64,000 bases of DNA from Escherichia phage APCEc01. The stretch is taken from sequence record NC_029091.1; one strand, written 5' to 3'. A model generated the notes under the pieces. That model saw only the letters and a program-made list of their open reading frames with translations, was not told the DNA's origin and searched no databases. Positions 6,674 through 58,503 of this stretch are shown here, in pieces (within the stretch, counting starts at the first letter, position 1; the number at the start of each line of letters is the position of its first letter). A program made the position numbers and the translations under genes.

Positions 6674-7138
6674 ATGAAATCATACGCTGAATTTTTGACT
6701 GAACAATCTAGTTCAGATGTAAAAGCCGCTGCGATTGCAGCAATTCAAGCAGGTAAATATTCTTACAAAGACGCCTCTGATGAAGAACGTTTCCGTTTTA
6801 TTAGAGATTTTAAAGCCGAAGGTTTTACTAATGCTAATACTGTTAGCCGAGTTTTTAAAAGCCTAGCTGCATCAGGTGAATTGTTCCAGAAAGCTACAGG
6901 TAAAGCACCTGCGCCAAAAACAGACCCTAAAGCAGCTCAAGAAAAAAATATCGCCAAAGGAATTATTTCTAAGTATGAAGCAATTCTTAAAGAGCTTTTA
7001 GTAATCAAAACAGAAGGCCAGAAACTGGCACGAGCACATAGCTTCAAAGATAATCCTCACGCTCATAGCCTTGAGTATGTTGAAGATATCCAAAAACTTA
7101 TTAAAGACCGTATCTGGTCTGCTAAACAAATTAAATAA
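6674..7138 (+). CDS. internal-protein-like protein with capsid targeting sequence
   Basis: 154 aa; N-terminus MKSYAEFLTEQ. Confidence 0.5.
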   Translation: MKSYAEFLTEQSSSDVKAAAIAAIQAGKYSYKDASDEERFRFIRDFKAEGFTNANTVSRVFKSLAASGELFQKATGKAPAPKTDPKAAQEKNIAKGIISKYEAILKELLVIKTEGQKLARAHSFKDNPHAHSLEYVEDIQKLIKDRIWSAKQIK

Positions 7139-7144
7139 TAGAAT

Positions 7145-7172
7145 GCCCCTTCCTTATGGTTGGGGCCTTTTG
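7145..7172 (+). terminator. rho-independent terminator
   Basis: GCCCC...GGGGC stem followed by CTTTTGG; same family as the 6601 and 22839 terminators. Confidence 0.6.
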
Positions 7173-7204
7173 GTATCTAGGGCATAAAAATATTTCATAA
7201 AGAT

Positions 7205-7245
7205 GTTTACTTCTTCTAAGGACATGATACTATAGACTTATCAAC
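7205..7245 (+). promoter_or_regulatory. early promoter (PeSL type)
   Basis: GTTTAC at 7205, TACTAT 17 nt downstream, then TAGACTTATCAAC box. Confidence 0.55.
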
Positions 7246-7261
7246 CATAGAGGAAAATGTT

Positions 7262-7765
7262 ATGAGTCTTTACACTGAACTGAATAAAAAATCTGAAGAA
7301 TCTGCTGAAACTATTTTTAAAAACGTGCAAAAGCGTATTTTGGAAAAGATGTACGATGCAGCATCTAAAGGTGAAAAATCTTGCCGGTTTCCGATGAGGT
7401 GTTCTTCTGATTTATGCGCAAATACTATTGAATGGCTGGAAAGTGAAGGTCTTACGGTAGAGAAAAACCCGGCGACTTCTATTGACGGCGAATCATATAT
7501 TAGTATTTCTTGGGATAAATCAAGGGTAGAAGAGAAAGATGGTGATTGGGTTGTAGATGTTAAAACTTCTGATGGTGGACGTTCTGTTGAAGTTTCAGCT
7601 GTAGTTAAAGGCACCCACGAACAAAGGACTTGGGGTTGGGGTGGTGAAGAAAAAGAAATTGTTCTTAGTGTGATTGCCAGGTCAACTAGTAATAAAATTG
7701 CACAAAGCATCATTGACGCTGCAATTGCTGAAGCAGAAAAAATTTGCAAAATTAAAAATAAATGA
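7262..7765 (+). CDS. hypothetical protein
   Basis: 167 aa; AGAGGA RBS; antisense ORF 7270..7779 judged spurious. Confidence 0.5.
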   Translation: MSLYTELNKKSEESAETIFKNVQKRILEKMYDAASKGEKSCRFPMRCSSDLCANTIEWLESEGLTVEKNPATSIDGESYISISWDKSRVEEKDGDWVVDVKTSDGGRSVEVSAVVKGTHEQRTWGWGGEEKEIVLSVIARSTSNKIAQSIIDAAIAEAEKICKIKNK

Positions 7766-7766
7766 T

Positions 7767-7810
7767 GTACAAACGCCAAGGATGGTGGTACTATAGACTT
7801 ATCAACTACA
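7767..7810 (+). promoter_or_regulatory. early promoter (PeSL type)
   Basis: GTACAA -35-like, TACTAT -10, TAGACTTATCAACTACAGAGG box. Confidence 0.5.
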
Positions 7811-7824
7811 GAGGAGTAAACAAA

Positions 7825-7989
7825 ATGACTACTTTAATTATTTGGTTCGATGAAAATGAAGAAACATACTGTGTGAATATTGGTGAAAGTCCAATGCCTG
7901 AATTTGAATCCTCGGATAAAAACTCTGTTGTATCTTGGGCTGAAGGTTATAAAGCAGCTAAAGGTGACGTTGAAATAATTTACATCTAA
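7825..7989 (+). CDS. hypothetical small protein
   Basis: ATG 7825 after GAGGAG; 54 aa (MTTLIIWFDENEE...). Confidence 0.4.
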   Translation: MTTLIIWFDENEETYCVNIGESPMPEFESSDKNSVVSWAEGYKAAKGDVEIIYI

Positions 7990-8020
7990 GTAAGTTTATG
8001 TTATAGTAATCACATCAAAT
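7979..8020 (+). promoter_or_regulatory. early promoter
   Basis: TTTACA at 7979, TATAGT at 8003 (18-nt spacer). Confidence 0.45.
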
Positions 8021-8035
8021 CAAGAGGAAAATAAA

Positions 8036-8263
8036 ATGGCTAAAGTTAGTATTGATGTCGTTGATTATGAATACACCGAAGAAGTTATTCGCAACCGACA
8101 CCCTGAAGTTCGTATCGATTCAGTCCAAGATTCCAAGTTCTGGACAACTGAGCTTAATCTGAGTGGTCCTTATGAAGCTGTTAAGAAGTTCATGGTTGAA
8201 GAATACTGCGAAGGCATGCACCCCGAAGACGCCAAGTTTTATGTCAATTTGATTAAAAAATAA
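8036..8263 (+). CDS. hypothetical protein
   Basis: 75 aa acidic protein; AAGAGGAAA RBS. Confidence 0.45.
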   Translation: MAKVSIDVVDYEYTEEVIRNRHPEVRIDSVQDSKFWTTELNLSGPYEAVKKFMVEEYCEGMHPEDAKFYVNLIKK

Positions 8264-8300
8264 TTTACAAACTCTTGAGAGCAGAGTATAATGCTCTCAT
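8263..8300 (+). promoter_or_regulatory. early promoter (PeSL type), near-duplicate of element at 38776
   Basis: TTTACA -35, TATAAT -10 at 8287, inverted repeat GAGAGC / GCTCTC flanking the -10. Confidence 0.6.
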
Positions 8301-8333
8301 CGGATAACAAACCACCAATTGAAAGGTAATAAT

Positions 8334-8927
8334 ATGAACACACTGAAGAAACTTGTTGAATTCATCCGCACTAAACTTGGTACTGCTATGGCTAAAAATC
8401 TGACTGTCGAAGAACAGTATAACGCAGCTGCAGATAAGTTGATTACCCAAATCAAAGAACTAAAAACGGCTTCTGTTAAATCTATTAATGAAGAAAAACG
8501 TATTCGCGAACTTGTTAATGAAAAGAACAAACAAGCCGCTTCTAAGGAACGTGAAATTCGTAAGCTCTTGGCTGAAGGACAAGATGTTACCATGCATGCT
8601 AAGCTTGGTCTTCTGTATCGTCGAACTGCCGAACAACTTAATACAAAGGCTGACGGGTATGCCGCTATGCGAATTGAAATTGCTCGTAAGGTGGTTGAAC
8701 TTGATGATGCTCGTCAGAATCTGGCAATCAAACTCGAATACATTCGTGAAACTCGAGCAGCCAATGCCCTTGGTATCTCTACGGCTGATGATGTAATTGA
8801 AATCGCTGCACTGACTAAGGTTGATATCGAAGACACTCTGACTCGTGTTGAAACGTTCAATGGCACTCCAGCCGGTGTCGAAACCACTTCTGCTGATGTA
8901 CAAGAATATATTAACTCTTTGAAATAA
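8334..8927 (+). CDS. coiled-coil protein, function unknown
   Basis: ATG 8334; 197 aa, heptad-rich. Confidence 0.5.
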
Positions 8928-8935
8928 AATAATAC

Positions 8936-8958
8936 GGAGGACTCCGGTCCTCCTTTTG
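8936..8958 (+). terminator. rho-independent terminator
   Basis: GGAGGAC-TCCG-GTCCTCC hairpin then TTTTGG. Confidence 0.7.
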
Positions 8959-8976
8959 GATAATAAAGGAGTTAAC

Positions 8977-9579
8977 ATGCGAAACCAAAATAATGATATT
9001 GACTCAATGTTCGAAGAGTTCCGAGATAAGGTAAATCCACCTACGTCTTTAGTTGATTCATTACGATATGTTGCAACCGGACGTAAATGGTACTGGTCGT
9101 CTTCTTATGAGACTACTGAGAAAACGGCTAGCCATAGCAGAAAATCTTTATTAGCCCCAGGTATTATGATTCATGATATCGGAGCTATTGCTAAACTAGT
9201 TGCAGACCATGATATTAGATTCACCGATTTCGTTGCTCCTACATGGTCTGTTTGTTGTTTAAACACTGAATGGGAATATATCAGCGAACGCTCTAAAGAT
9301 TATTATGGTTTTAGAGATAAGCTTCTGAGGTCTAACATGTTTTATATTGATACAGAAGTTCTGGTCAATAATAAAAAATACTACTTCACTTTAATCGTCG
9401 ATTCTGAAACTATGTATGAAGGCGGGCCTTTGCTTAAGAGAGTTGATGCTTTAAGTGCTATTGATGCGCTTTATGAAACTATGGTTGTTAGTCCTAATTT
9501 CACTAACAATTTAATCCTTGAGCAATTTATTATGGAATGTAGAGAATATGTCAAAGCCAACCCTGTACATGCCAATTAA
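8977..9579 (+). CDS. hypothetical protein
   Basis: ATG 8977 after AAGGAG; 200 aa; C-terminal region contains EQFIMECR junction motif. Confidence 0.5.
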   Translation: MRNQNNDIDSMFEEFRDKVNPPTSLVDSLRYVATGRKWYWSSSYETTEKTASHSRKSLLAPGIMIHDIGAIAKLVADHDIRFTDFVAPTWSVCCLNTEWEYISERSKDYYGFRDKLLRSNMFYIDTEVLVNNKKYYFTLIVDSETMYEGGPLLKRVDALSAIDALYETMVVSPNFTNNLILEQFIMECREYVKANPVHAN

Positions 9580-47927: not shown

Positions 47928-50639
47928 ATGAAAGAATTTTACTTAACGGTTGAACAGATTGGTGATTCAATTTTTGAACGTTACATCGATTCTAATGGCC
48001 GTGAACGTACTCGTGAAGTAGAATATAAACCATCACTGTTTGCTCATTGTCCAGAAAGTCAGGCTACGAAATATTTCGATATCTACGGTAAGCCGTGTAC
48101 TCGTAAGTTGTTCGCTAATATGCGTGATGCCTCCCAATGGATTAAACGCATGGAAGATATCGGACTTGAAGCACTTGGCATGGACGATTTCAAATTGGCG
48201 TATTTGTCTGACACTTATAACTATGAAATCAAATACGACCATACAAAAATTCGTGTGGCTAACTTCGACATCGAAGTAACATCTCCGGACGGGTTCCCTG
48301 AGCCGTCACAAGCAAAACATCCGATTGATGCTATCACCCATTATGACTCAATTGACGACAGGTTCTACGTATTTGATCTATTGAATTCTCCATATGGTAA
48401 TGTAGAAGAATGGTCTATTGAAATCGCTGCTAAGCTTCAAGAACAAGGCGGTGATGAAGTTCCATCTGAAATTATCGATAAAATCATTTATATGCCGTTC
48501 GATAACGAAAAAGAATTGTTGATGGAATATCTCAACTTCTGGCAACAGAAAACTCCTGTCATTTTGACTGGATGGAACGTTGAGTCATTTGATATTCCAT
48601 ATGTGTATAACCGAATCAAGAATATTTTTGGCGAATCTACTGCGAAACGTTTATCGCCACATCGTAAAACTCGTGTTAAAGTTATCGAAAACATGTATGG
48701 TTCTCGTGAAATCATTACATTGTTCGGTATCTCTGTTCTTGATTACATTGGCCTTTACAAAAAATTCTCTTTTACCAATCAACCGTCGTATTCTCTGGAT
48801 TACATTTCAGAATTTGAATTGAACGTTGGTAAACTGAAATATGACGGCCCTATTTCTAAGCTTCGTGAAAGCAATCACCAACGATATATTTCTTATAACA
48901 TTATCGACGTGTATCGTGTATTGCAAATTGATGCTAAGCGTCAGTTCATCAACTTGAGCTTGGACATGGGTTATTATGCTAAGATACAGATTCAATCTGT
49001 GTTTAGCCCAATTAAAACATGGGATGCTATTATTTTTAATAGCCTTAAAGAGCAGAACAAGGTGATTCCACAAGGTCGTTCTCACCCGGTTCAACCTTAT
49101 CCCGGCGCTTTTGTTAAGGAACCTATTCCAAATCGATACAAATATGTAATGAGTTTCGACCTTACATCTCTGTATCCAAGTATTATTCGCCAAGTGAATA
49201 TTAGCCCGGAAACAATAGCAGGAACGTTTAAAGTAGCTCCATTGCATGATTATATTAACGCAATCGCTGAACGTCCTTCAGATGTGTACAGTTGCTCTCC
49301 TAACGGCATGATGTATTATAAAGACCGTGATGGTGTAGTTCCAACTGAAATCACTAAGGTCTTTAATCAACGTAAAGAACATAAAGGTTACATGCTTGCA
49401 GCTCAACGTAATGGTGAAATAATTAAAGAGGCATTGCATAATCCTAATCTTTCTGTTGACGAACCATTAGATGTTGATTATCGTTTCGACTTCAGTGATG
49501 AGATTAAAGAAAAGATTAAAAAGTTGTCTGCTAAATCTCTTAATGAAATGTTGTTTAGAGCTCAACGTACTGAAGTTGCAGGTATGACCGCACAAATTAA
49601 CCGTAAATTGCTTATCAACTCACTTTATGGTGCACTTGGCAACGTTTGGTTCCGTTATTATGATTTGCGTAATGCTACTGCAATCACAACATTCGGGCAA
49701 ATGGCTTTACAGTGGATTGAACGTAAAGTTAATGAATATCTGAATGAAGTTTGTGGTACAGAAGGTGAAGCTTTCGTTCTATATGGTGATACAGACTCTA
49801 TTTACGTATCTGCTGATAAAATTATCGATAAGGTTGGTGAATCTAAATTCCGTGATACCAACCATTGGGTAGACTTCTTAGATAAGTTTGCACGTGAACG
49901 TATGGAACCTGCTATTGATAGAGGTTTCCGTGAAATGTGTGAATACATGAACAATAAACAACACTTAATGTTCATGGACCGAGAAGCTATCGCTGGTCCT
50001 CCGCTCGGTTCTAAAGGTATTGGTGGATTCTGGACTGGTAAGAAACGTTATGCATTAAACGTGTGGGATATGGAAGGAACCAGATACGCTGAGCCTAAAC
50101 TCAAAATCATGGGTCTAGAGACTCAGAAATCTTCGACCCCTAAAGCAGTACAGAAAGCTCTTAAAGAATGTATTCGTCGTATGCTTCAAGAAGGTGAAGA
50201 ATCATTACAAGAATATTTTAAAGAGTTTGAAAAAGAATTCCGTCAATTGAATTATATTAGCATCGCGTCGGTATCTTCTGCGAATAACATTGCTAAATAC
50301 GACGTAGGTGGATTCCCGGGTCCTAAATGCCCGTTCCATATTCGTGGAATTCTGACATATAACCGAGCTATCAAAGGTAATATTGATGCACCACAAGTTG
50401 TAGAAGGTGAAAAAGTATATGTTCTGCCTTTACGTGAAGGAAACCCATTCGGTGATAAATGTATCGCATGGCCTTCTGGTACTGAAATCACAGATTTAAT
50501 TAAAGACGATGTACTTCATTGGATGGACTACACTGTTCTCCTTGAGAAGACATTTATTAAACCACTTGAAGGATTCACATCAGCAGCTAAACTCGATTAC
50601 GAGAAGAAAGCATCTCTGTTCGATATGTTTGATTTTTGA
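47928..50639 (+). CDS. 43: DNA polymerase gp43 (family B, with 3'-5' exonuclease)
   Basis: 903 aa; MKEFYLTVEQIGDSIFERYIDSNGRERTREVEYKPSLFAHCPES...; exo motifs FDIEV and NVESFDIPYVY, pol motifs SLYPSII and YGDTDS; matches my memory of the RB69 polymerase. Confidence 0.97.
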   Translation: MKEFYLTVEQIGDSIFERYIDSNGRERTREVEYKPSLFAHCPESQATKYFDIYGKPCTRKLFANMRDASQWIKRMEDIGLEALGMDDFKLAYLSDTYNYEIKYDHTKIRVANFDIEVTSPDGFPEPSQAKHPIDAITHYDSIDDRFYVFDLLNSPYGNVEEWSIEIAAKLQEQGGDEVPSEIIDKIIYMPFDNEKELLMEYLNFWQQKTPVILTGWNVESFDIPYVYNRIKNIFGESTAKRLSPHRKTRVKVIENMYGSREIITLFGISVLDYIGLYKKFSFTNQPSYSLDYISEFELNVGKLKYDGPISKLRESNHQRYISYNIIDVYRVLQIDAKRQFINLSLDMGYYAKIQIQSVFSPIKTWDAIIFNSLKEQNKVIPQGRSHPVQPYPGAFVKEPIPNRYKYVMSFDLTSLYPSIIRQVNISPETIAGTFKVAPLHDYINAIAERPSDVYSCSPNGMMYYKDRDGVVPTEITKVFNQRKEHKGYMLAAQRNGEIIKEALHNPNLSVDEPLDVDYRFDFSDEIKEKIKKLSAKSLNEMLFRAQRTEVAGMTAQINRKLLINSLYGALGNVWFRYYDLRNATAITTFGQMALQWIERKVNEYLNEVCGTEGEAFVLYGDTDSIYVSADKIIDKVGESKFRDTNHWVDFLDKFARERMEPAIDRGFREMCEYMNNKQHLMFMDREAIAGPPLGSKGIGGFWTGKKRYALNVWDMEGTRYAEPKLKIMGLETQKSSTPKAVQKALKECIRRMLQEGEESLQEYFKEFEKEFRQLNYISIASVSSANNIAKYDVGGFPGPKCPFHIRGILTYNRAIKGNIDAPQVVEGEKVYVLPLREGNPFGDKCIAWPSGTEITDLIKDDVLHWMDYTVLLEKTFIKPLEGFTSAAKLDYEKKASLFDMFDF

Positions 50640-50679: not shown

Positions 50680-51315
50680 ATGAAAACTACTCCTATTACT
50701 ATCGCTATTGACGCAATCGTAAAACAAGCTTCATCTCTTGCCACTATGGCTAAAGTAATTAGTCAAAACCCTGCTCGTTATAATGCTATTCTAGAAACTC
50801 TTCGACGCCCTGGACTTAGTAATTATGAAAGCCGGGTAATTATTACAGGTGTTGGTAAGAATGCTAATATCGCAACTAAAGCTTCCGAGACTTTTGCTTC
50901 ACTAGGTATTCCTAGCATGTATTTGAACACCGGGCATTATTCTCATGGTGACGCAGGATTTATTGCGCCTAATGACGTGTTGATTCATATTAGTCGTTCT
51001 GGTAAAACTGAAGAAATGATAGGTGTTGCTAAACATCTTCGTATGATTCGTCCTCAGGTTAAACAGATTCTGTTACATTGTAACCCAGACATTCCACAAG
51101 AATACGAAGCTCTTTTTGATTATACGTTCTGTACCGGTATCGCGGTAGAAGTTGACGAGAACTCTTTAGCTCCGACTATGTCCACTACATTGTTGTTAGC
51201 GCTTATCGATACGTTTGCTATCAACCTTTCGTCTGAACGTGGATTTACCTCTAATGATTTCCTTAAGTTCCATCCAGGCGGTGCACTAGGTGCCATGTTA
51301 CGAGGCGAACAATGA
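50680..51315 (+). CDS. SIS-domain sugar-phosphate isomerase (KdsD/GutQ-like arabinose-5-phosphate isomerase candidate)
   Basis: 211 aa; SIS motifs ITGVGKNANIATKASETFASLGIP and IHISRSGKTEE; C-terminal FHPGGALGAML as in API enzymes; no CBS domains. Confidence 0.65.
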   Translation: MKTTPITIAIDAIVKQASSLATMAKVISQNPARYNAILETLRRPGLSNYESRVIITGVGKNANIATKASETFASLGIPSMYLNTGHYSHGDAGFIAPNDVLIHISRSGKTEEMIGVAKHLRMIRPQVKQILLHCNPDIPQEYEALFDYTFCTGIAVEVDENSLAPTMSTTLLLALIDTFAINLSSERGFTSNDFLKFHPGGALGAMLRGEQ

Positions 51316-51452
51316 AAGCAATAACAATAGGACTTTTACTATTGATGCTTGTCATGACTATCTACTGGAGCTTAACGGCTCCGGTAATGATTCCAACACT
51401 TGTAATTGGATGGATTATGATTGGACTACAAGCAAAGTATGAATGCTTTAAC
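51312..51452 (+). CDS. small hydrophobic membrane peptide (46 aa; possible Imm-like remnant)
   Basis: ATG 51312 overlaps upstream stop; MKAITIGLLLLMLVMTIYWSLTAPVMIPTLVIGWIMIGLQAKYECFN; below track size threshold. Confidence 0.4.
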
Positions 51453-51496
51453 TAGAATAGTGTACAATACTCCTACTTACCAATGAGGACTTCAAC

Positions 51497-53182
51497 ATGA
51501 AAAAAGCTGTTATTCTTGGTGCTGGACTGGCAACTCGTTTGTATCCAATAACGCATCATATTCCTAAGGTGCTTGTTAATTATAAACAAGACACTATTCT
51601 GAGCAATTTGTATACAATTTATTCTGACCTTGGCGCAGATGAAATTATTGTAGTAGTTCATTCAAAATTTGCTGAAACTGTTCGAGCTTATTGTGAGCAA
51701 GAAGGGTTCAATGTGACTATTCGTACAGTTGATGAAGCGTATGGTTCTGCTTATGCTCTTGCTAAATTACACAAAGATTTAGACGGCCATAATGTAATTG
51801 TTAACTGGTGTGATATTATTCCTGATTTTGGTTCATGGTCTTGGAATGTTAACGCAATCTATGTTAAGGGTGACGAATGTCGATATAATTTCGACGGTGA
51901 AAATATCACTAACGTAGGTTCAACAGGTGGTAATGTTGTAGGAATTTATCAGTTCAAAGACTGGGAATTCTATATGGGTTCTACCGATGAGGAAATTCAT
52001 GAATACTGCAAAGGACGTGATTTCGTAGAATTCCTTTACGGCAGCGCATTCAATAAATCAGAGCTTATGAATATAATTGATTTAGGTGATATGCCTAAAC
52101 TTGAAAAGGCTCATGAAGTTCGTGAACTTAATCGTAGTTTTAATGCAGTTGAAATTGGTGAAGAAACTGTAACTAAATTCGCATTAACCGAACAGGGTCG
52201 AGCTCTTCAGAAAGATGAGATTTCGTGGTATTTGAAAGTGAAATCAGATTCAGTTCCTCAGTTAGTTTCTGTTAATGAAAATAACTTTGAAATGGAACGC
52301 ATTAAAGGTAAGCCAGCATTTGAATATATTAAATCCAAATCAAGTCTTGCTCGTCCACAAATTGTTGATGCAATTTTAGATGCACTGAAATTCAGCACAG
52401 ACACTTATTTTGTAAGTCCTGAAACTGTTCGTCGTGATTTCACTAAAGAATTCTATACGAAAGTTATTGATCGTTGTGAAAGCATTCAACCGTTGATTGA
52501 TTCATTTGGTAAAATCACACATGTGAACTACACTAAGATTGGACGTCTGAAGCCAATGCTGAAACAAGCTTTAGAACACCTTATTCGGTATCATAACCGT
52601 TCTCAGGGACAGTACTCTGTTATTCACGGTGACCCGAACTTCAGTAATACTATGATTACTGATAACGGCGAAGTCAAGTTTATCGACCCTCGTGGATATT
52701 TTGGCGAAACCAAGATTTACGGGCCAAAATTGTATGATGAAGCTAAAGTGCTTTATGCTGTTTCAGGTTATGATGAATTCAATGCTAATCCGACCTGGGG
52801 GCAGTTTACTATTGATGAAACAACTTGTAATGTGACTATTAACATCAATCCATTAGTTTACAAATATGGAAAGATGAGTTCGTTTAACGAGTATCATCAT
52901 TTGGCAGTGGCAATTATCTGGATTGCATTAGGTGGTTATTTCAAGAATAATCCACTTAAAGCGGTAGCCGCATATTATAAAGGTATGGAACTTCTGACTA
53001 AGCAATTACGTAACATGGGCCGTGTACTTCAGGACGGCTCTATTAGTTATGACGTAGCAGAACCTGTAACGGCTACTCTGATTACAAAAAATCCTGGTAA
53101 ATGGGTACTAACTGATAAAGAAACTGGTGTTTCCTATCGTCCAATCGGTGGCGATATCACTCATCAATGGGAACGAATCTAA
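51497..53182 (+). CDS. bifunctional sugar-1-phosphate nucleotidyltransferase / anomeric sugar kinase (APH-ChoK fold)
   Basis: 561 aa; N-terminal AVILGAGLATRLYPITHHIPKVLV pyrophosphorylase signature; C-terminal IHGDPNFSNTMITDNGEVKFIDPRGYFG matches the HxDxxxxN catalytic loop and Dxx metal motif of APH/choline-kinase-like kinases. Confidence 0.7.
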   Translation: MKKAVILGAGLATRLYPITHHIPKVLVNYKQDTILSNLYTIYSDLGADEIIVVVHSKFAETVRAYCEQEGFNVTIRTVDEAYGSAYALAKLHKDLDGHNVIVNWCDIIPDFGSWSWNVNAIYVKGDECRYNFDGENITNVGSTGGNVVGIYQFKDWEFYMGSTDEEIHEYCKGRDFVEFLYGSAFNKSELMNIIDLGDMPKLEKAHEVRELNRSFNAVEIGEETVTKFALTEQGRALQKDEISWYLKVKSDSVPQLVSVNENNFEMERIKGKPAFEYIKSKSSLARPQIVDAILDALKFSTDTYFVSPETVRRDFTKEFYTKVIDRCESIQPLIDSFGKITHVNYTKIGRLKPMLKQALEHLIRYHNRSQGQYSVIHGDPNFSNTMITDNGEVKFIDPRGYFGETKIYGPKLYDEAKVLYAVSGYDEFNANPTWGQFTIDETTCNVTININPLVYKYGKMSSFNEYHHLAVAIIWIALGGYFKNNPLKAVAAYYKGMELLTKQLRNMGRVLQDGSISYDVAEPVTATLITKNPGKWVLTDKETGVSYRPIGGDITHQWERI

Positions 53183-53568
53183 TGCACCGTGTAGAAAACA
53201 TGCTTAATCTTTGTTTTGATGTCGATGATTGTATAACAGAGTGGAATAACAATCGTGATTACGTGAACTTCAAACCTGACGTCGAAATGGTGTCTGCCAT
53301 TAATGCCCTGTATGATGCAGGGCATACCATAACGCTTTACACTGCTCGCGGTATGAAGTCAGTAGGTCCTGGTCGTATAGCAATTGACATTCTCCCAAGT
53401 CTTATTCAGAACTTGGCAAACATTGGCTTGAAGTACCATAATTTGCTAACACATAAACCAGTATATGATTGGATTATCGACGACAAAGCTATGCGTCCTG
53501 ACGAATTCAAAGCTCTTATGAATAAAGGCGAATTCGAAACATTTAAATCATATAAACCGAATCTATAA
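53182..53568 (+). CDS. HAD-superfamily phosphatase
   Basis: ATG 53182 overlapping upstream stop (TAATG); 128 aa; motif I DVDDCIT near N-terminus, TARG and DDK motifs downstream. Confidence 0.6.
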   Translation: MHRVENMLNLCFDVDDCITEWNNNRDYVNFKPDVEMVSAINALYDAGHTITLYTARGMKSVGPGRIAIDILPSLIQNLANIGLKYHNLLTHKPVYDWIIDDKAMRPDEFKALMNKGEFETFKSYKPNL

Positions 53569-53628: not shown

Positions 53629-54789
53629 ATGAATACTTTTAAAATCGGAACGAATTTTGATTTAGCTCTTCTTGATAAAATCGTAGAGCTCAATAAAACT
53701 TATCCTAATAGCTTGATAAATGAAGTATACGGCTCTACAAGAGAAATGGCTTTTGTAGCAGCCAGACCTGATTTTAGGCTTCCTGACGTTGACAAAAAGA
53801 TGTTAGAAGATTACGTTAAACGTTGTAACGAATTAGGTATTTGCTTTAACTATACACTCAACACGATAAATCCTGGTTCAAAAAGAGAACTAGTTGAGTG
53901 GAAGAAGAAAGCTATTCAGGATTATGTTCAGTATCTTTGGTCAATAGGCGTATGGCGTATTACTATCGCTAACCCTGTTGTTATGGAAATTGTTCGTGAA
54001 GTCAATAAAGACATTGAGATTGAAGTTTCAACAATTCTACATGTCGATGCTGTAACTCAAATCAAATACTTGCATGACCAATATAATATCAAAAAGGTCT
54101 GCTGTGGAATTCATAAGAACCGTTCAGTTTCTTTCCTGAAGCGTGCAGCAGAGTTTTGCAATAAGAACAATATAATATTTGAAGTTCTTGTAAATGAGTT
54201 CTGTTCTAATGCTGGTAAAGGGTATACAACACATTGTAGCTATCGTGACTCTTGCTATATTTTCCATAGTACTGATGTTACAGCTGATGATGCTAAATCC
54301 TTAAACGGATATCCTATGCAGCACTGTATTAAAGCTCGTGATACAGACCCATTTAACTGGTTGAGAACTCGTTTTGTTCGTCCTCAAGATTTGAAACTTT
54401 ATAATGATATTGGTATCACTCAATTCAAAGTTTCAGGACGTACAGGTAGCACAGACTACATTTTGAAAGTTCTTGAAGCATACGCTTCTGAAAAGTTTGA
54501 AGGTAATTTGTTAGAACTGTGGAAGCCTTTAGAGACTATTTTCACTCTTGAAAACGAAACTGAGTTTTCACATACAGTAAATATTGAAACCTCTTTGTTA
54601 GATGGCTTTTTAGAAAAAAGGTGGTTCAGACATCCAGATTTCGATTGTGCTAATGAAATCTGCGGGACGACGTGTACATATTGTGAAAGATATTATAAAC
54701 GTCAATTATCTAAAAACGGGTTAGCAGAAAACTCTATATCTATTATTGATATAACTAACTCTGATGACGCTTTGAGGTACCCGGAATGA
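53629..54789 (+). CDS. Cys-cluster enzyme of unknown function (possible U32-like/TIM-barrel or transferase)
   Basis: 386 aa; internal EFCSNAGKGYTTHCSYRDSCY and C-terminal CANEICGTTCTYCERYY Cys clusters; family not confidently recognised. Confidence 0.5.
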   Translation: MNTFKIGTNFDLALLDKIVELNKTYPNSLINEVYGSTREMAFVAARPDFRLPDVDKKMLEDYVKRCNELGICFNYTLNTINPGSKRELVEWKKKAIQDYVQYLWSIGVWRITIANPVVMEIVREVNKDIEIEVSTILHVDAVTQIKYLHDQYNIKKVCCGIHKNRSVSFLKRAAEFCNKNNIIFEVLVNEFCSNAGKGYTTHCSYRDSCYIFHSTDVTADDAKSLNGYPMQHCIKARDTDPFNWLRTRFVRPQDLKLYNDIGITQFKVSGRTGSTDYILKVLEAYASEKFEGNLLELWKPLETIFTLENETEFSHTVNIETSLLDGFLEKRWFRHPDFDCANEICGTTCTYCERYYKRQLSKNGLAENSISIIDITNSDDALRYPE

Positions 54790-55025
54790 TTTCTAGAAAA
54801 ACTTTTAACCACCAACTTAATGAAGAGATTTTGACTATGAAACTGAACACTAATGAACAAATTCTTAAAAAGGCCCATCAGGGCCTTTTTGAAACTAAAG
54901 CGGCTAAAGTGATTAAAGAACCTGTTCAATTAGAATACTACGCTGATGCATTTCTTCATAGTGTTCTTGGAAGTATCGATGCCGAAGCTTTACGTTATAT
55001 CAATATTGCCAAGAAATTCAAATAA
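54786..55025 (+). CDS. hypothetical protein
   Basis: 79 aa; ATGA overlap with upstream gene. Confidence 0.45.
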   Translation: MISRKTFNHQLNEEILTMKLNTNEQILKKAHQGLFETKAAKVIKEPVQLEYYADAFLHSVLGSIDAEALRYINIAKKFK

Positions 55026-55066: not shown

Positions 55067-55783
55067 ATGGGAAAACATAACACAATGAAATATATCAAAG
55101 CCGCAGATTTTCAAACCGCATTTAAAGCAGTCAATCGTGAAATTTTAGAAAACCCGGAATTCGTAACTGATTCTCGTATTGGACGTTGTAATGAAATTGG
55201 GTCTATGACAGTAGTTGTTGACACTCCATCATCATTCAAAATGACCGACCCACGTATTAACCGCATCTCTTATGAATATGCCGAAGACTTCTGGAAGTTT
55301 ATGATTTCTGGTGGTACCAACGCAGAAGAAGCGTTTAAGGCATATCCTAATGTCGCTAAATTTATTTCTAAACCAAAATCAGATGTTTTGCCGGCGAACT
55401 TCAACACTTTCTATGGTCCTCGCATTGCGGCTCAATTACCAGCTCTTCTAAAAGAACTTAAAGAGAAGCCTAACTCCCGAAGAGTTGTGTTCCAAATTCT
55501 AGAAAGTTCTGATCAGGCTTTGCTTGATTCGGACGAAACGCTTGAATATCCATGTACTGACTCAGTGACTTATTATATTCGTGATGGTAAGCTTTATACC
55601 CACTGTCATATGCGTTCTCAGAACTGTGCTGTTGTTATGCAGTTGGATTTTTATCTCCAAGGAAAATTACTTCATTATATCGCTAACGAATGTGGTGTAG
55701 AAGTTGGTGATTATACTCATACCATGGTAAGTGCCCATGTGTTTGAACGTGATTTTGATTATGTTAAAGGATTCCTTGACTAA
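55067..55783 (+). CDS. 42: dCMP hydroxymethylase gp42 (thymidylate-synthase fold)
   Basis: 238 aa; TS-family landmarks SRRVVFQ, nucleophile PCTD, MRSQNCAVVMQLDF, SAHVF; only TS-like gene here; position between 43 and uvsX as in T4. Confidence 0.7.
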   Translation: MGKHNTMKYIKAADFQTAFKAVNREILENPEFVTDSRIGRCNEIGSMTVVVDTPSSFKMTDPRINRISYEYAEDFWKFMISGGTNAEEAFKAYPNVAKFISKPKSDVLPANFNTFYGPRIAAQLPALLKELKEKPNSRRVVFQILESSDQALLDSDETLEYPCTDSVTYYIRDGKLYTHCHMRSQNCAVVMQLDFYLQGKLLHYIANECGVEVGDYTHTMVSAHVFERDFDYVKGFLD

Positions 55784-56682
55784 TGGCTATTTTCCGCGTA
55801 CCTATCTTGAGTATGCGGTCTTATGAAACTGGACAGTATGCTATCCTTAAGGATGGCAACTTCCAACTTCATTTGCACCGTGCTAATCCGGGTGATGTGA
55901 TTACATATCCACGTAATGCATCTGATATTAAAGAATGCGAACGTCTTTTTCCAGAATTTAAGTTTGTTCCATTATGGTATAAAGATAACGCGTATAACAC
56001 TCGTAAATATTTCTGGTCTGAAAATGAATTTGTGGTTGATTCATTAATTGCTTATTATGACTGTGATTTTCTAATCACAGATATCACTGGATATGACGGC
56101 GCTTTTGATGTGGAATTCAATTTCAATATCACTGCAGACCCTAATAAACCACGTTTTTATATTGACGAATTCTTAAAAACCGATATGTTGTCGGTTAATC
56201 GTTCACTTCAAACTACTGTGTTGAATGAACGTCAAAAAGAAGTGCTGGTTAACGCTGGTGCAGATGGTAATAAGATTATCGTAACGCAGAAAGTTATACG
56301 TCCTTCCATCATGCAGCGTCTTGTAGGTGATTTGGCTCCTATTCATCTAGATGGTATTTTTCATCCATTTCGAATTAGTGACCCATGCTATCGTTTTGAA
56401 CAAGTTGTTGAATGCGCAATTCAATTAGGTCAACCGCTTTATATAACCGATCCAAATAATAGCTTCGACAGAAATAAGTATCCTGAAGAAGCGTTGATTC
56501 GAATTTTTAAACCAACTAAAACTGAGTACTATCAAATTCTTAAAGGACGTCCGAAAATTCAATATTTCGAAAATCCTGAAGAAGTATTCCATCCAGGTCT
56601 TGGTGAGTTCATCTACTTTAATGCTTTAATTTCTTCGCCGTATAATATACCTAAATATGAAGATGTCGTAATCGAGGAATAA
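55783..56682 (+). CDS. hypothetical protein occupying the beta-glucosyltransferase position (candidate modification enzyme)
   Basis: 299 aa; no resemblance to remembered T4 beta-gt; ATGG overlap with gene 42 stop. Confidence 0.5.
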   Translation: MAIFRVPILSMRSYETGQYAILKDGNFQLHLHRANPGDVITYPRNASDIKECERLFPEFKFVPLWYKDNAYNTRKYFWSENEFVVDSLIAYYDCDFLITDITGYDGAFDVEFNFNITADPNKPRFYIDEFLKTDMLSVNRSLQTTVLNERQKEVLVNAGADGNKIIVTQKVIRPSIMQRLVGDLAPIHLDGIFHPFRISDPCYRFEQVVECAIQLGQPLYITDPNNSFDRNKYPEEALIRIFKPTKTEYYQILKGRPKIQYFENPEEVFHPGLGEFIYFNALISSPYNIPKYEDVVIEE

Positions 56683-56683
56683 A

Positions 56684-57232
56684 ATGGCTAAAATTATTTT
56701 AGTAGATGGCCCAGATAATGCTGGTAAAACAACTTTCATTAATGTCATAATGGAAATTAGTGAAAGATATGTAAAGATTGATTTCCCTAAACGAACAGTT
56801 GATGGGCGTTTCGATGTTAAGTCTCGAAATGAAGTTGGCTGTTTCGAAACGATGTTGAATTATTTAGACCCTACTAAGATTTATCTGTTAGACCGTGGAT
56901 ATATTAGTAACTGGGTTTATGGACGTATTCGACAAGATGCGGACTCGATTCTTGACGTTTATGAACAGGACTATGTTCGTCTTTGCCAAAACCATGATGT
57001 GTTCACAATTATTTTAACACGTAACGAAATGACTGAAAGTTTTGAAGACGACCTTATTACTTTGTCTTCATTCGGTTTTAATACAGTCATTTCACATTTT
57101 GAAGAGTTTGCAATTCATAACAAAATCCAAACGTATCAATTACTTAATCATGATGGTGCTAACAAAGTTATAGGATTTAATGCAAGCGAACGTAATTATT
57201 TGATTACAGAAATTATCAAATGGGCTCGTTAA
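56684..57232 (+). CDS. P-loop nucleotide/nucleoside kinase-like protein
   Basis: 182 aa; Walker A ILVDGPDNAGKTT, DRGY segment; resembles dNMP/thymidylate-kinase-like P-loop kinases. Confidence 0.5.
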   Translation: MAKIILVDGPDNAGKTTFINVIMEISERYVKIDFPKRTVDGRFDVKSRNEVGCFETMLNYLDPTKIYLLDRGYISNWVYGRIRQDADSILDVYEQDYVRLCQNHDVFTIILTRNEMTESFEDDLITLSSFGFNTVISHFEEFAIHNKIQTYQLLNHDGANKVIGFNASERNYLITEIIKWAR

Positions 57233-57330: not shown

Positions 57331-58503
57331 ATGTCTGATTTAAAATCTCGTCTGATTAAAGCTTCTACTTCTAAAATGACTGCAGACTTGACTAAGTCTA
57401 AGCTGTTTAATAATCGTGATGAAGTCCCTACTCGTATTCCGATGTTGAATATTGCACTAGGTGGTGCACTGAATGCTGGGTTGCAATCAGGCTTAACTAT
57501 TTTTGCTGCTCCTTCTAAACACTTTAAAACATTGTTTGGGCTGACCATGGTTGCAGCATATATGAAGAAATATAAAGATGCAATCTGTTTGTTTTATGAC
57601 TCAGAATTCGGTGCTTCAGAATCTTATTTTCGTTCAATGGGTGTTGATTTAGACCGTGTAGTTCATACTCCGATTCAATCTGTCGAACAACTTAAAGTTG
57701 ATATGACTAATCAGCTTGACGCGATTGAACGCGGTGATAAAGTTATTATCTTTATCGATTCAATCGGTAATACTGCATCTAAGAAAGAAACCGAAGATGC
57801 GTTGAACGAGAAAGTTGTAGGTGATATGTCTCGTGCTAAGGCACTTAAATCTCTGTTCCGCATTGTGACCCCGTATCTGACTATTAAAGATATTCCGTGT
57901 GTTGCAATTAACCATACCGCAATGGAAATCGGCGGACTATATCCTAAAGAGATTATGGGTGGTGGTACAGGTATTCTTTACTCTGCTAACACTGTATTCT
58001 TTATCTCTAAACGTCAGGTTAAAGAAGGTACAGAATTGACCGGTTATGACTTCACGTTGAAAGCAGAAAAATCTCGTACAGTTAAAGAGAAATCTACTTT
58101 CCCGATCACGGTTAATTTTGATGGCGGTATTGATCCATTCAGTGGCTTGTTAGAAATGGCAACTGAAATTGGATTTGTTGTTAAGCCTAAAGCTGGTTGG
58201 TATGCTCGTGAATTCCTTGACGAAGAAACAGGTGAAATGATTCGTGAAGAGAAATCGTGGCGTGCTAAAGCTACTGATTGTGTAGAATTCTGGGGTCCGT
58301 TGTTTAAACACAAACCTTTCCGTGACGCAATTGAAACTAAATATAAACTAGGTGCTATCTCTTCTATTAAAGAAGTTGATGACGCTGTTAATGACCTTAT
58401 TAATTGCAAAGCAACAACTAAAGTTCCGGTTAAAACTTCTGATGCTCCGTCTGCAGCAGATATAGAAAACGACCTTGACGAAATGGAAGATTTCGATGAA
58501 TAA
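57331..58503 (+). CDS. uvsX: recombinase UvsX (RecA-like)
   Basis: 390 aa; MSDLKSRLIKASTSKMTADLTKSKLFNNRDEVPTRIPMLNIALGG...; Walker A GPSKHFKT; matches T4 UvsX. Confidence 0.93.
   Translation: MSDLKSRLIKASTSKMTADLTKSKLFNNRDEVPTRIPMLNIALGGALNAGLQSGLTIFAAPSKHFKTLFGLTMVAAYMKKYKDAICLFYDSEFGASESYFRSMGVDLDRVVHTPIQSVEQLKVDMTNQLDAIERGDKVIIFIDSIGNTASKKETEDALNEKVVGDMSRAKALKSLFRIVTPYLTIKDIPCVAINHTAMEIGGLYPKEIMGGGTGILYSANTVFFISKRQVKEGTELTGYDFTLKAEKSRTVKEKSTFPITVNFDGGIDPFSGLLEMATEIGFVVKPKAGWYAREFLDEETGEMIREEKSWRAKATDCVEFWGPLFKHKPFRDAIETKYKLGAISSIKEVDDAVNDLINCKATTKVPVKTSDAPSAADIENDLDEMEDFDE

Follow-up and report, generated by a model that had tools for sequence, protein, structure and literature searches.

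Which enzyme occupies, in Escherichia phage APCEc01, the place at which phage T4 encodes its beta-glucosyltransferase (beta-gt)? In the 64,000-nucleotide (nt) stretch of this genome that was analysed (sequence record NC_029091.1; hereafter, the window), which belongs to a Mosigvirus, an RB69-like T-even phage, the place is taken by the following open reading frame (ORF):

55783..56682, + strand: glycosyltransferase (GT) ORF of family phrog_3891, with an ATG start, 299 amino acids (aa)

An earlier note, made from the sequence of this stretch, had proposed a positional replacement of beta-gt by an enzyme modifying 5-hydroxymethylcytosine (hmC), such as a pentosyltransferase or a second-sugar transferase, or by an accessory factor. 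A positional replacement of beta-gt by an unrelated sugar transferase is what we find, and the ORF is very probably a pentosyltransferase, since it is embedded in a cluster for the biosynthesis of uridine diphosphate (UDP)-arabinose. We favor, with moderate confidence, the reading that, in the arabinosyl-5-hydroxycytosine pathway, its product acts as the DNA arabinosyltransferase for the base-proximal sugar; this assignment is carried by observations on fold, orthology, synteny, and phyletic distribution and on the chemistry of the neighboring enzymes. The gene, its fold-based annotation, and the pathway are already in the literature for proteins that are 99-100% identical (PMC13326640, PMC13390438), where the function is a prediction; the RB69 counterpart, gp46:47, was modelled, as a prediction only, as "arabinosyltransferase 1" (Lee et al., NAR 2026, PMC13326640).

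The position in the genome agrees with the earlier note in that the ORF fills the T4 b-gt slot between a ThyA-family gene (55067..55783) and uvsX (57331..58503); in T4, the interval from gene 42 to uvsX contains b-gt and segA. The ATG of the GT ORF overlaps the upstream TAA by one base (ctTAATGg), and its stop codon is followed, after a gap of 1 nt, by the ATG of a 182-aa kinase ORF that has its own GAGGA ribosome-binding site. The overlap had been likened to the arrangement in T4, but there the end of gene 42 (25479) and the start of b-gt (25455) are separated by a 23-nt spacer; nor is the upstream gene a gene 42, as had been thought, its product being 25% identical to T4 gp42 versus 99% identical to RB69 gp48. 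From the DNA polymerase gene (47928..50639) through uvsX and gene 41, everything is encoded on the + strand with minimal intergenic space, and promoter- and terminator-like matches in a scan of 50.8-57.5 kb stayed at background level, which is uninformative on operon structure. For the 2.3 kb surrounding the GT ORF, identity reaches 99.7% with Shigella phage JK42 and lies at 95-99% with about 150 coliphages.

The 299-aa protein matches phrog_3891 with an E value of 3e-156; its identity to RB69 ORF047c+046c is 99.3%, and with many Mosigvirus proteins it reaches 100%. In the RB69 reference (NC_004928 24597-25497; locus L002, 2598-3498), one extra T, at alignment column 545 (GTAG-GTG versus GTAGTGTG), splits the gene into ORF047c and ORF046c, whereas the ORF is intact in the window and in all other Mosigvirus records. 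A tblastn search placed the family in 347 phage records, although it is small, comprising 229 clusters at 50% identity among 1.84 billion representatives, and its database labels vary among "hypothetical", "RNA polymerase binding protein", and "glycosyltransferase". A chance ORF was rejected on account of the intact homologues in the 347 records and the very confident structural model described below.

Sequence searches connect this family to no known enzyme. Neither Pfam nor NCBIfam contained a family matching the 299-aa ORF, none of 54 diverse family members matched the GT models of Pfam (including Glycos_transf_1, CAZy GT4) at E<=1, and neither phmmer nor the family profile matched any chain in the PDB, so that no GT was found there. 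The claim that the protein bears no similarity to T4 beta-gt was borne out (BLASTP E=3.7; hhalign probability, 0.1%); BLASTP against RB69 gp3 gave an E value of 3.1, and when T4 alpha-gt, T4 beta-gt, and RB69 gp3 were compared with the family profile by hhalign, every probability stayed at <1%, the single-sequence templates making these weak tests. The structure is more telling. An AlphaFold2 model built from a 54-sequence alignment (predicted local distance difference test score, 95.2; predicted template modelling score, 0.89) presents the protein as a compact GT-B fold with two Rossmann-like domains and an inter-domain cleft, in answer to the fold prediction that the earlier note had put forward as a check and that could have shown a non-transferase. 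Foldseek matched the model to MshA and to UDP-N-acetylglucosamine (UDP-GlcNAc) 2-epimerases, which are likewise GT-B (E about 2e-6), and no nucleotidyltransferase fold was among its matches.

Across the 54 family sequences, down to 36% identity, 32 alignment columns are invariant. In the N-terminal domain these include M11-R12-S13, Y19, and K23-D-G-N26 in the loop after strand 1, and in the C-terminal domain F193-x-P-F-R197-x-x-D200, T222-x-P-N225, K246, and H270-P-G272, with E275 nearly invariant. Matched by pattern, without superposition, the C-terminal motifs would lie at the positions of the phosphate-binding Arg/Lys and of the EX7E segment of GT4 enzymes. By the same pattern mapping, E267-x7-E275 is present in the window protein, while the family keeps only E275 and H270-P271-G272, position 267 being variable. 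The invariant columns are concentrated in the GT-B functional loops and nothing points to a non-catalytic role; for this reason, a non-enzymatic accessory factor, one of the options raised at the outset, was rejected.

The nature of the acceptor is indicated by the gene immediately upstream:

55067..55783, + strand: 5-hydroxy-deoxycytidine monophosphate (5-hydroxy-dCMP) synthase of the ThyA superfamily (PF00303), the positional counterpart of T4 gene 42

The product is near-identical to the crystal structures 9iqc/9ir2 from coliphage HY126 and carries MRSQN where T4 gp42 has MRSND, which places an Asn at the position of E. coli ThyA D169, a residue diagnostic for 5-hydroxy-dCMP synthases (PMC13326640). 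RB69 gp48 has been experimentally shown to be a flavin mononucleotide (FMN)-associated 5-hydroxy-dCMP synthase (Lee et al., NAR 2026, PMC13326640). Because the window synthase is 99% identical to RB69 gp48 and bears the Asn signature, phages of this lineage make arabinosyl-5-hydroxycytosine, not glycosyl-hmC. Accordingly, of the suggestion of an hmC-modifying pentosyltransferase, the pentosyl part stands, given the UDP-arabinose biosynthesis cluster, but the hmC acceptor does not, and an hmC-specific enzyme was rejected because the adjoining synthase is of the 5-hydroxycytosine type. The arabosyl-hmC first proposed for RB69 in 2018 (PMC6024577) has likewise been superseded: RB69 DNA carries beta-D-Araf-(1,3)-alpha-D-Araf-O5-cytosine (Araf, arabinofuranose), in which the sugar is ether-linked directly to the C5 oxygen (PMC13326640). 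The gp1-type deoxynucleoside monophosphate (dNMP) kinase of RB69, gp159, phosphorylates 5-hydroxy-dCMP to the diphosphate, and 5-hydroxydeoxycytidine enters DNA when only gp48 and gp159 are expressed, without any GT (PMC13326640).

The donor is indicated by the remainder of the cluster, in which a SIS isomerase, a nucleotidyltransferase/kinase, a HAD phosphatase, the 5-hydroxy-dCMP synthase, and a further kinase are all encoded in the same direction as the GT ORF, in support of the favored assignment:

50680..51315, + strand: SIS-domain arabinose-5-phosphate isomerase, 211 aa, RB69 gp55 (PF01380, syntenic annotation, literature)

51312-51455, + strand: very hydrophobic small ORF, 47 aa, between the isomerase and nucleotidyltransferase genes

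51497..53182, + strand: predicted UDP-Araf synthase, 561 aa, nucleotidyltransferase with a kinase-like C-terminal domain (PF00483, PF12804, weak kinase families, phrog_4098)

53167..53568, + strand: HAD-like phosphatase, 133 aa, RB69 gp51, HY126 AfhF (phrog_1238, literature)

53629..54789, + strand: peptidase-U32-family protein, 386 aa, RB69 gp50 (PF01136, weak UbiU match, conserved Cys clusters)

54786..55025, + strand: conserved protein, 79 aa, RB69 ORF049c, between the U32 gene and the synthase (phrog_8601)

56684..57232, + strand: Tmk-like P-loop nucleotide kinase, 182 aa, starting 1 nt past the GT stop (phrog_761)

The UDP-arabinofuranose pathway has been described for RB69, DLP3, and HY126, with activities shown for the HY126 homologues (PMC13326640). 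The 561-aa protein is the counterpart of RB69 gp52:53 and of HY126 AfhE, for which pyrophosphorylase activity has been reported (PMC13326640), and its N-terminal motif, GAGLATRLYPITHHIPK, is the GxGxRxxPxTxxxPK signature of nucleotidyltransferases. The HAD-like phosphatase is predicted to convert Araf-1,5-bisphosphate to Araf-1-phosphate. In the Mosigvirus phages NRG-P0074 and a20, a homing-endonuclease gene (NRG-P0074: locus L001, 3471-4232) lies between the nucleotidyltransferase/kinase and HAD genes; the window is without this insert (about 53170), and the two genes overlap directly. The 47-aa ORF, which matches an annotated hypothetical gene of NRG-P0074 in length and position, may encode a small membrane protein. 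The U32-family protein, also found in Shewanella phage Thanatos and at locus L011, has 11 cysteines conserved in three homologues down to 50% identity, among them C192, C203, C209, C233, and the C-terminal C340-x4-C345-x3-C349-x2-C352. It is listed merely as a "sugar or heterocycle reductase" in PMC13326640; since the cellular U32 proteins RlhA and TrhP are required for O2-independent C5-hydroxylation of RNA cytidine and uridine (PMC5727448, PMC6599085), by analogy it could provide an anaerobic route to 5-hydroxycytosine.

A scheme for the whole pathway can be proposed as follows: (i) the ThyA-like flavoenzyme would convert dCMP to 5-hydroxy-dCMP, as shown for the 99%-identical RB69 gp48; (ii) 5-hydroxy-dCMP would be phosphorylated and then incorporated instead of dC; (iii) the isomerase, the kinase/uridylyltransferase, and the phosphatase would together yield UDP-D-arabinofuranose; (iv) the UDP-sugar would be bound by the 299-aa protein, a minimal GT-B enzyme, in its C-terminal Rossmann domain, where F193-x-P-F-R197, K246, H270-P-G, and E275 are located; (v) the first alpha-D-Araf would be moved to the cytosine 5-OH, probably with retention of configuration as in the GT4-like structural neighbors; and (vi) the second arabinose (beta-1,3) would be added by a separate gp3-type GT encoded outside the window. 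For the 299-aa protein itself, the donor, the acceptor, the stereochemistry, and DNA rather than a nucleotide as the acceptor are what we infer. The base-proximal sugar of RB69 is alpha-D-Araf (PMC13326640), which fits the retaining type of the structural neighbors.

The assignment to the first rather than the second sugar draws on the phyletic pattern. Every phage that has this cluster also has the GT family, mono-arabinosylated phages included. Hosts of phages carrying the GT family include Escherichia, Acinetobacter, Klebsiella, Serratia, Enterobacter, Proteus, Yersinia, Edwardsiella, Pseudomonas, Shewanella, and others, while the gp3-type GT was found only in Escherichia/Shigella Mosigvirus, with two arabinoses, and in Acinetobacter phages, with three arabinoses and two copies of the gene. 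Serratia phage LC53 and Shewanella phage Thanatos attach a single arabinose and contain the 299-aa family, and the gp3-type GT was not found in them; mono-arabinosylated phages with the one and without the other fit the prediction for a base-proximal transferase. On the same grounds, the idea that the 299-aa protein adds arabinose to arabinose as a second-sugar transferase, as the earlier note had offered, or that it serves as a non-catalytic partner of another GT, appears improbable. Obligate partnerships between GTs do occur, since DLP3 gp76 and gp77 are active solely as a pair (PMC13326640), ORF003c (gp3) itself was proposed as the arabinosyltransferase by Thomas et al. 2018 (PMC6024577), and a paralogue in phages PS2 and Muldoon, discussed below, shows that the scaffold can persist after the loss of several invariant residues; however, the 32 invariant columns include the C-domain motifs expected for binding of a nucleoside diphosphate (NDP)-sugar, and the gene is tightly linked to the 5-hydroxy-dCMP synthase, not to other GTs. 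The earlier note had named a transferase encoded elsewhere in the genome as grounds for giving up its proposal. Homologues of gp3, alpha-gt, and beta-gt were not found elsewhere in the window, and Mosigvirus genomes do encode a second GT, of the RB69 gp3 type, outside it; this enzyme is now assigned to the second arabinose and does not refute the proposal.

Several lines of evidence weigh against a base-proximal DNA arabinosyltransferase: (i) transferase activity has not been demonstrated for any family member in the literature surveyed, which excluded He et al. 2026 and Mahler et al. 2025; (ii) the purified DLP3 GTs, tested singly, gave no arabinosylation of 5-hydroxycytosine DNA with UDP-Araf or UDP-arabinopyranose (PMC13326640); (iii) the Thanatos homologue TH1_063 glycosylated neither DNA, dCMP, nor dCTP, only unhydroxylated acceptors and UDP-xylose having been tried (PMC12838424); (iv) Pfam, PDB, and hhalign comparisons gave no sequence-level link to any characterized GT family; (v) the first Glu of EX7E in GT4 enzymes, as located by pattern, varies within the family; (vi) the GT is tied or fused to a nucleotide kinase, which suits a nucleotide acceptor at least equally; and (vii) the family is uniformly acidic (median isoelectric point [pI], 5.2), a property no less compatible with a nucleotide acceptor than with DNA, although T4 alpha-gt is also acidic (pI 6.1) and acts on DNA, so that pI does not discriminate between acceptors.

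TH1_063 (locus L003, 5995-6897), which is 47.5% identical to the window GT and stands at the same position, is also the source of a different view of the family, namely, that the 299-aa protein supplies the activated sugar, as a UDP-pentose pyrophosphorylase, and is no transferase. The purified protein gave UDP-xylose from UTP and xylose-1-phosphate, as detected by liquid chromatography-tandem mass spectrometry (LC-MS/MS), while transfer was not detected (Brandt et al., AEM 2025, PMC12838424). We regard this view as highly improbable for several reasons: (i) the assay used a non-cognate sugar, a no-enzyme control only, and acceptors without a 5-OH; (ii) UDP-xylose could have arisen by reverse glycosyl transfer, from xylose-1-phosphate to contaminating UDP, in which case the protein would still count as a transferase that binds a UDP-pentose, or from a contaminant; (iii) the GT-B fold of the family conflicts with the pyrophosphorylase label; (iv) the nucleotidyltransferase signature is not in the 299-aa ORF, signature and PF00483 both being in the neighboring 561-aa ORF; and (v) the cluster already has a canonical sugar-1-phosphate nucleotidyltransferase domain, which in Thanatos lies in TH1_060, and the activity is reported for the HY126 homologue AfhE (PMC13326640). 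At the least, the TH1_063 data indicate that one member of the family can handle a UDP-pentose in vitro.

Another reading concerns the acceptor and draws on the conservation of the gene order. The succession of a ThyA-like gene, the GT, and a P-loop kinase (about 180-210 aa) is kept in Thanatos (GT 47% identical to that of the window), in the uncultured phages at loci L007 and L009 (two uncultured phages, 37-39%), and in Pootjesviridae, whose carriers of the cassette infect Rhizobium/Sinorhizobium and include RHph_N34 and phiM9. The Asn signature is present in every ThyA homologue adjoining a core member of the GT family, in Straboviridae, Pootjesviridae, and uncultured phages alike. GT-kinase fusions occur in 4 of the 150 best representatives (P0229, P0235, P0253, and P0259), with a C-terminal phrog_761 domain (E values of 6e-8 to 6e-16), i.e., the same PHROG as the gene downstream of the window GT; that of P0253 lies within a full cluster, alongside SIS, NTP-transferase, and U32 genes (locus L011, 7001-8725). 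In P0139, P0149, P0151, P0163, and P0232, an N-terminal domain of about 185 aa precedes the GT (locus L012, 733-2343); it is HAD-like on the sole basis of a sub-threshold Pfam match in P0139 and of DxDG...GDD motifs in P0139 and P0151. BLASTP and phmmer comparisons of the window kinase and HAD proteins with the fusion proteins gave nothing significant, the kinase domain having been identified through PHROG profiles.

These observations can be accommodated by a scheme in which the GT attaches arabinose to 5-hydroxy-dCMP, the glycosylated dNMP then serves as the substrate that the Tmk-like kinase phosphorylates, and arabinosyl-5-hydroxy-dCTP enters DNA through the polymerase. The three genes overlap or abut from Mosigvirus to Pootjesviridae and uncultured phages, the GT being flanked by, and translationally coupled to, enzymes of nucleotide metabolism, and one GT-kinase fusion sits inside a complete arabinose cluster. 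Moreover, gp159 already phosphorylates 5-hydroxy-dCMP, so that the ever-present Tmk-like kinase is left without an assigned substrate, and Rhizobium phage RHph_N34 carries both kinase types, Tmk-like and gp1-type. The inactivity of the singly tested DLP3 GTs on 5-hydroxycytosine DNA and, weakly, the acidity of the family point in the same direction, and the authors of PMC13326640 state that their experiments do not distinguish a mononucleotide from DNA as the first acceptor. Against this, 5-hydroxydeoxycytidine is readily incorporated unglycosylated, the pI argument is countered by T4 alpha-gt, and fusion and synteny may reflect a shared complex instead of a shared substrate. To our knowledge, all characterized phage DNA glycosylations are post-replicative, as established for the T-even alpha-gt and beta-gt. 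In DLP3, the third arabinose is added on DNA (PMC13326640). We hold, with moderate confidence, that the first acceptor is DNA and consider it unlikely that it is a mononucleotide, and we view the three-enzyme scheme as a whole with corresponding doubt. If it were true, the GT and the Tmk-like kinase would constitute a two-step channel delivering a pre-glycosylated dNTP to the replisome, it would be the first case of pre-replicative glycosylation of a phage DNA precursor, and it would explain the extra nucleotide kinase that always accompanies the GT despite a gp1-type kinase that handles 5-hydroxy-dCMP.

Outside the Mosigvirus lineage, the cassette is found in other contexts. At locus L009, a reductase-synthase-GT-kinase module (6715-9555) stands by itself, arabinose-pathway genes being absent within 8 kb, an arrangement suggesting that the sugar donor comes from the host. 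A Flavodoxin_2/FMN-reductase-like gene is directly upstream of the synthase at L009 and about 5 kb upstream at L007 (605-1123), and none was seen beside the window synthase; a reductase near the synthase fits a flavin-dependent hydroxylase in need of reduced flavin. The GT counterpart in Rhizobium phage RL38J1 has been assigned galactose (Lee et al., PMC13326640), and the phrog_3891 family seems to be a generic 5-hydroxycytosine first-sugar transferase with varying donors. A divergent 308-aa paralogue, FF83_gp042 of Serratia phage PS2 (locus L005, 3501-4427; phrog_3891, hhalign probability 99.2%, 19% identity), with a related paralogue in phage Muldoon (BFVD A0A5P8PH66), directly follows a true hmC-type gene 42 (MRSND), and beta-alpha-gt and beta-gt come after it; in the hhalign alignment, the family-invariant residues replaced in this paralogue include M11-R12, K23, R197, H270, and P271.

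Arabinosyl-5-hydroxycytosine shields Mosigvirus and many T4-like phages from restriction enzymes, CRISPR-Cas, and the Brig1 glycosylase. It is with the first bond from base to sugar, an ether, that the pathway takes its key committed step; in the same surveyed literature, the enzyme forming this bond is a predicted one. Leads for biochemistry are offered by the universal synthase-GT-kinase cassette, by the GT-kinase and HAD-GT fusions, and by the GT-B fold as opposed to the "UDP-xylose pyrophosphorylase" label; the cassette and the fusions in particular could alter the design of tests of the first step. The family resembles a minimal GT-B scaffold that is portable and is combined with different sugars in different phages.

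Compared with known systems, the window GT is a plain member of its family: RB69 gp46:47, DLP3 gp79, and Thanatos TH1_063 are orthologues, from which the intact 299-aa copy shows no substantive difference, and it combines full-length orthology to phrog_3891 with a synthase bearing the Asn signature upstream and a Tmk-like kinase downstream. T4 beta-glucosyltransferase (GT63) shares with it the slot between a ThyA-family gene and uvsX, the GT-B superfold, and the task of coating a C5-oxygenated cytosine with sugar, but it has no sequence homology and acts on hmC from a gp42-type dCMP hydroxymethylase. Relative to T4 alpha-gt (GT72) and the retaining bacterial GT4 enzymes (SPS, BshA, MshA, and PimA), the window protein lacks about 60 to 100 residues, its C-terminal domain is reduced, and, by the pattern mapping above, H270-P-G would stand in for the variable first Glu of EX7E. 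The RB69 gp3/HY126 GT (PDB 9iqz, 9ir0), whose type is the only one represented among HY126 GT structures in the PDB, is also GT-B and belongs to the same pathway in the same phages; in contrast, it is unrelated in sequence, has 366 aa, is encoded about 20 kb away beside rIIA, outside the window, is restricted to di- and tri-arabinosylating phages, and is assigned to the second sugar.

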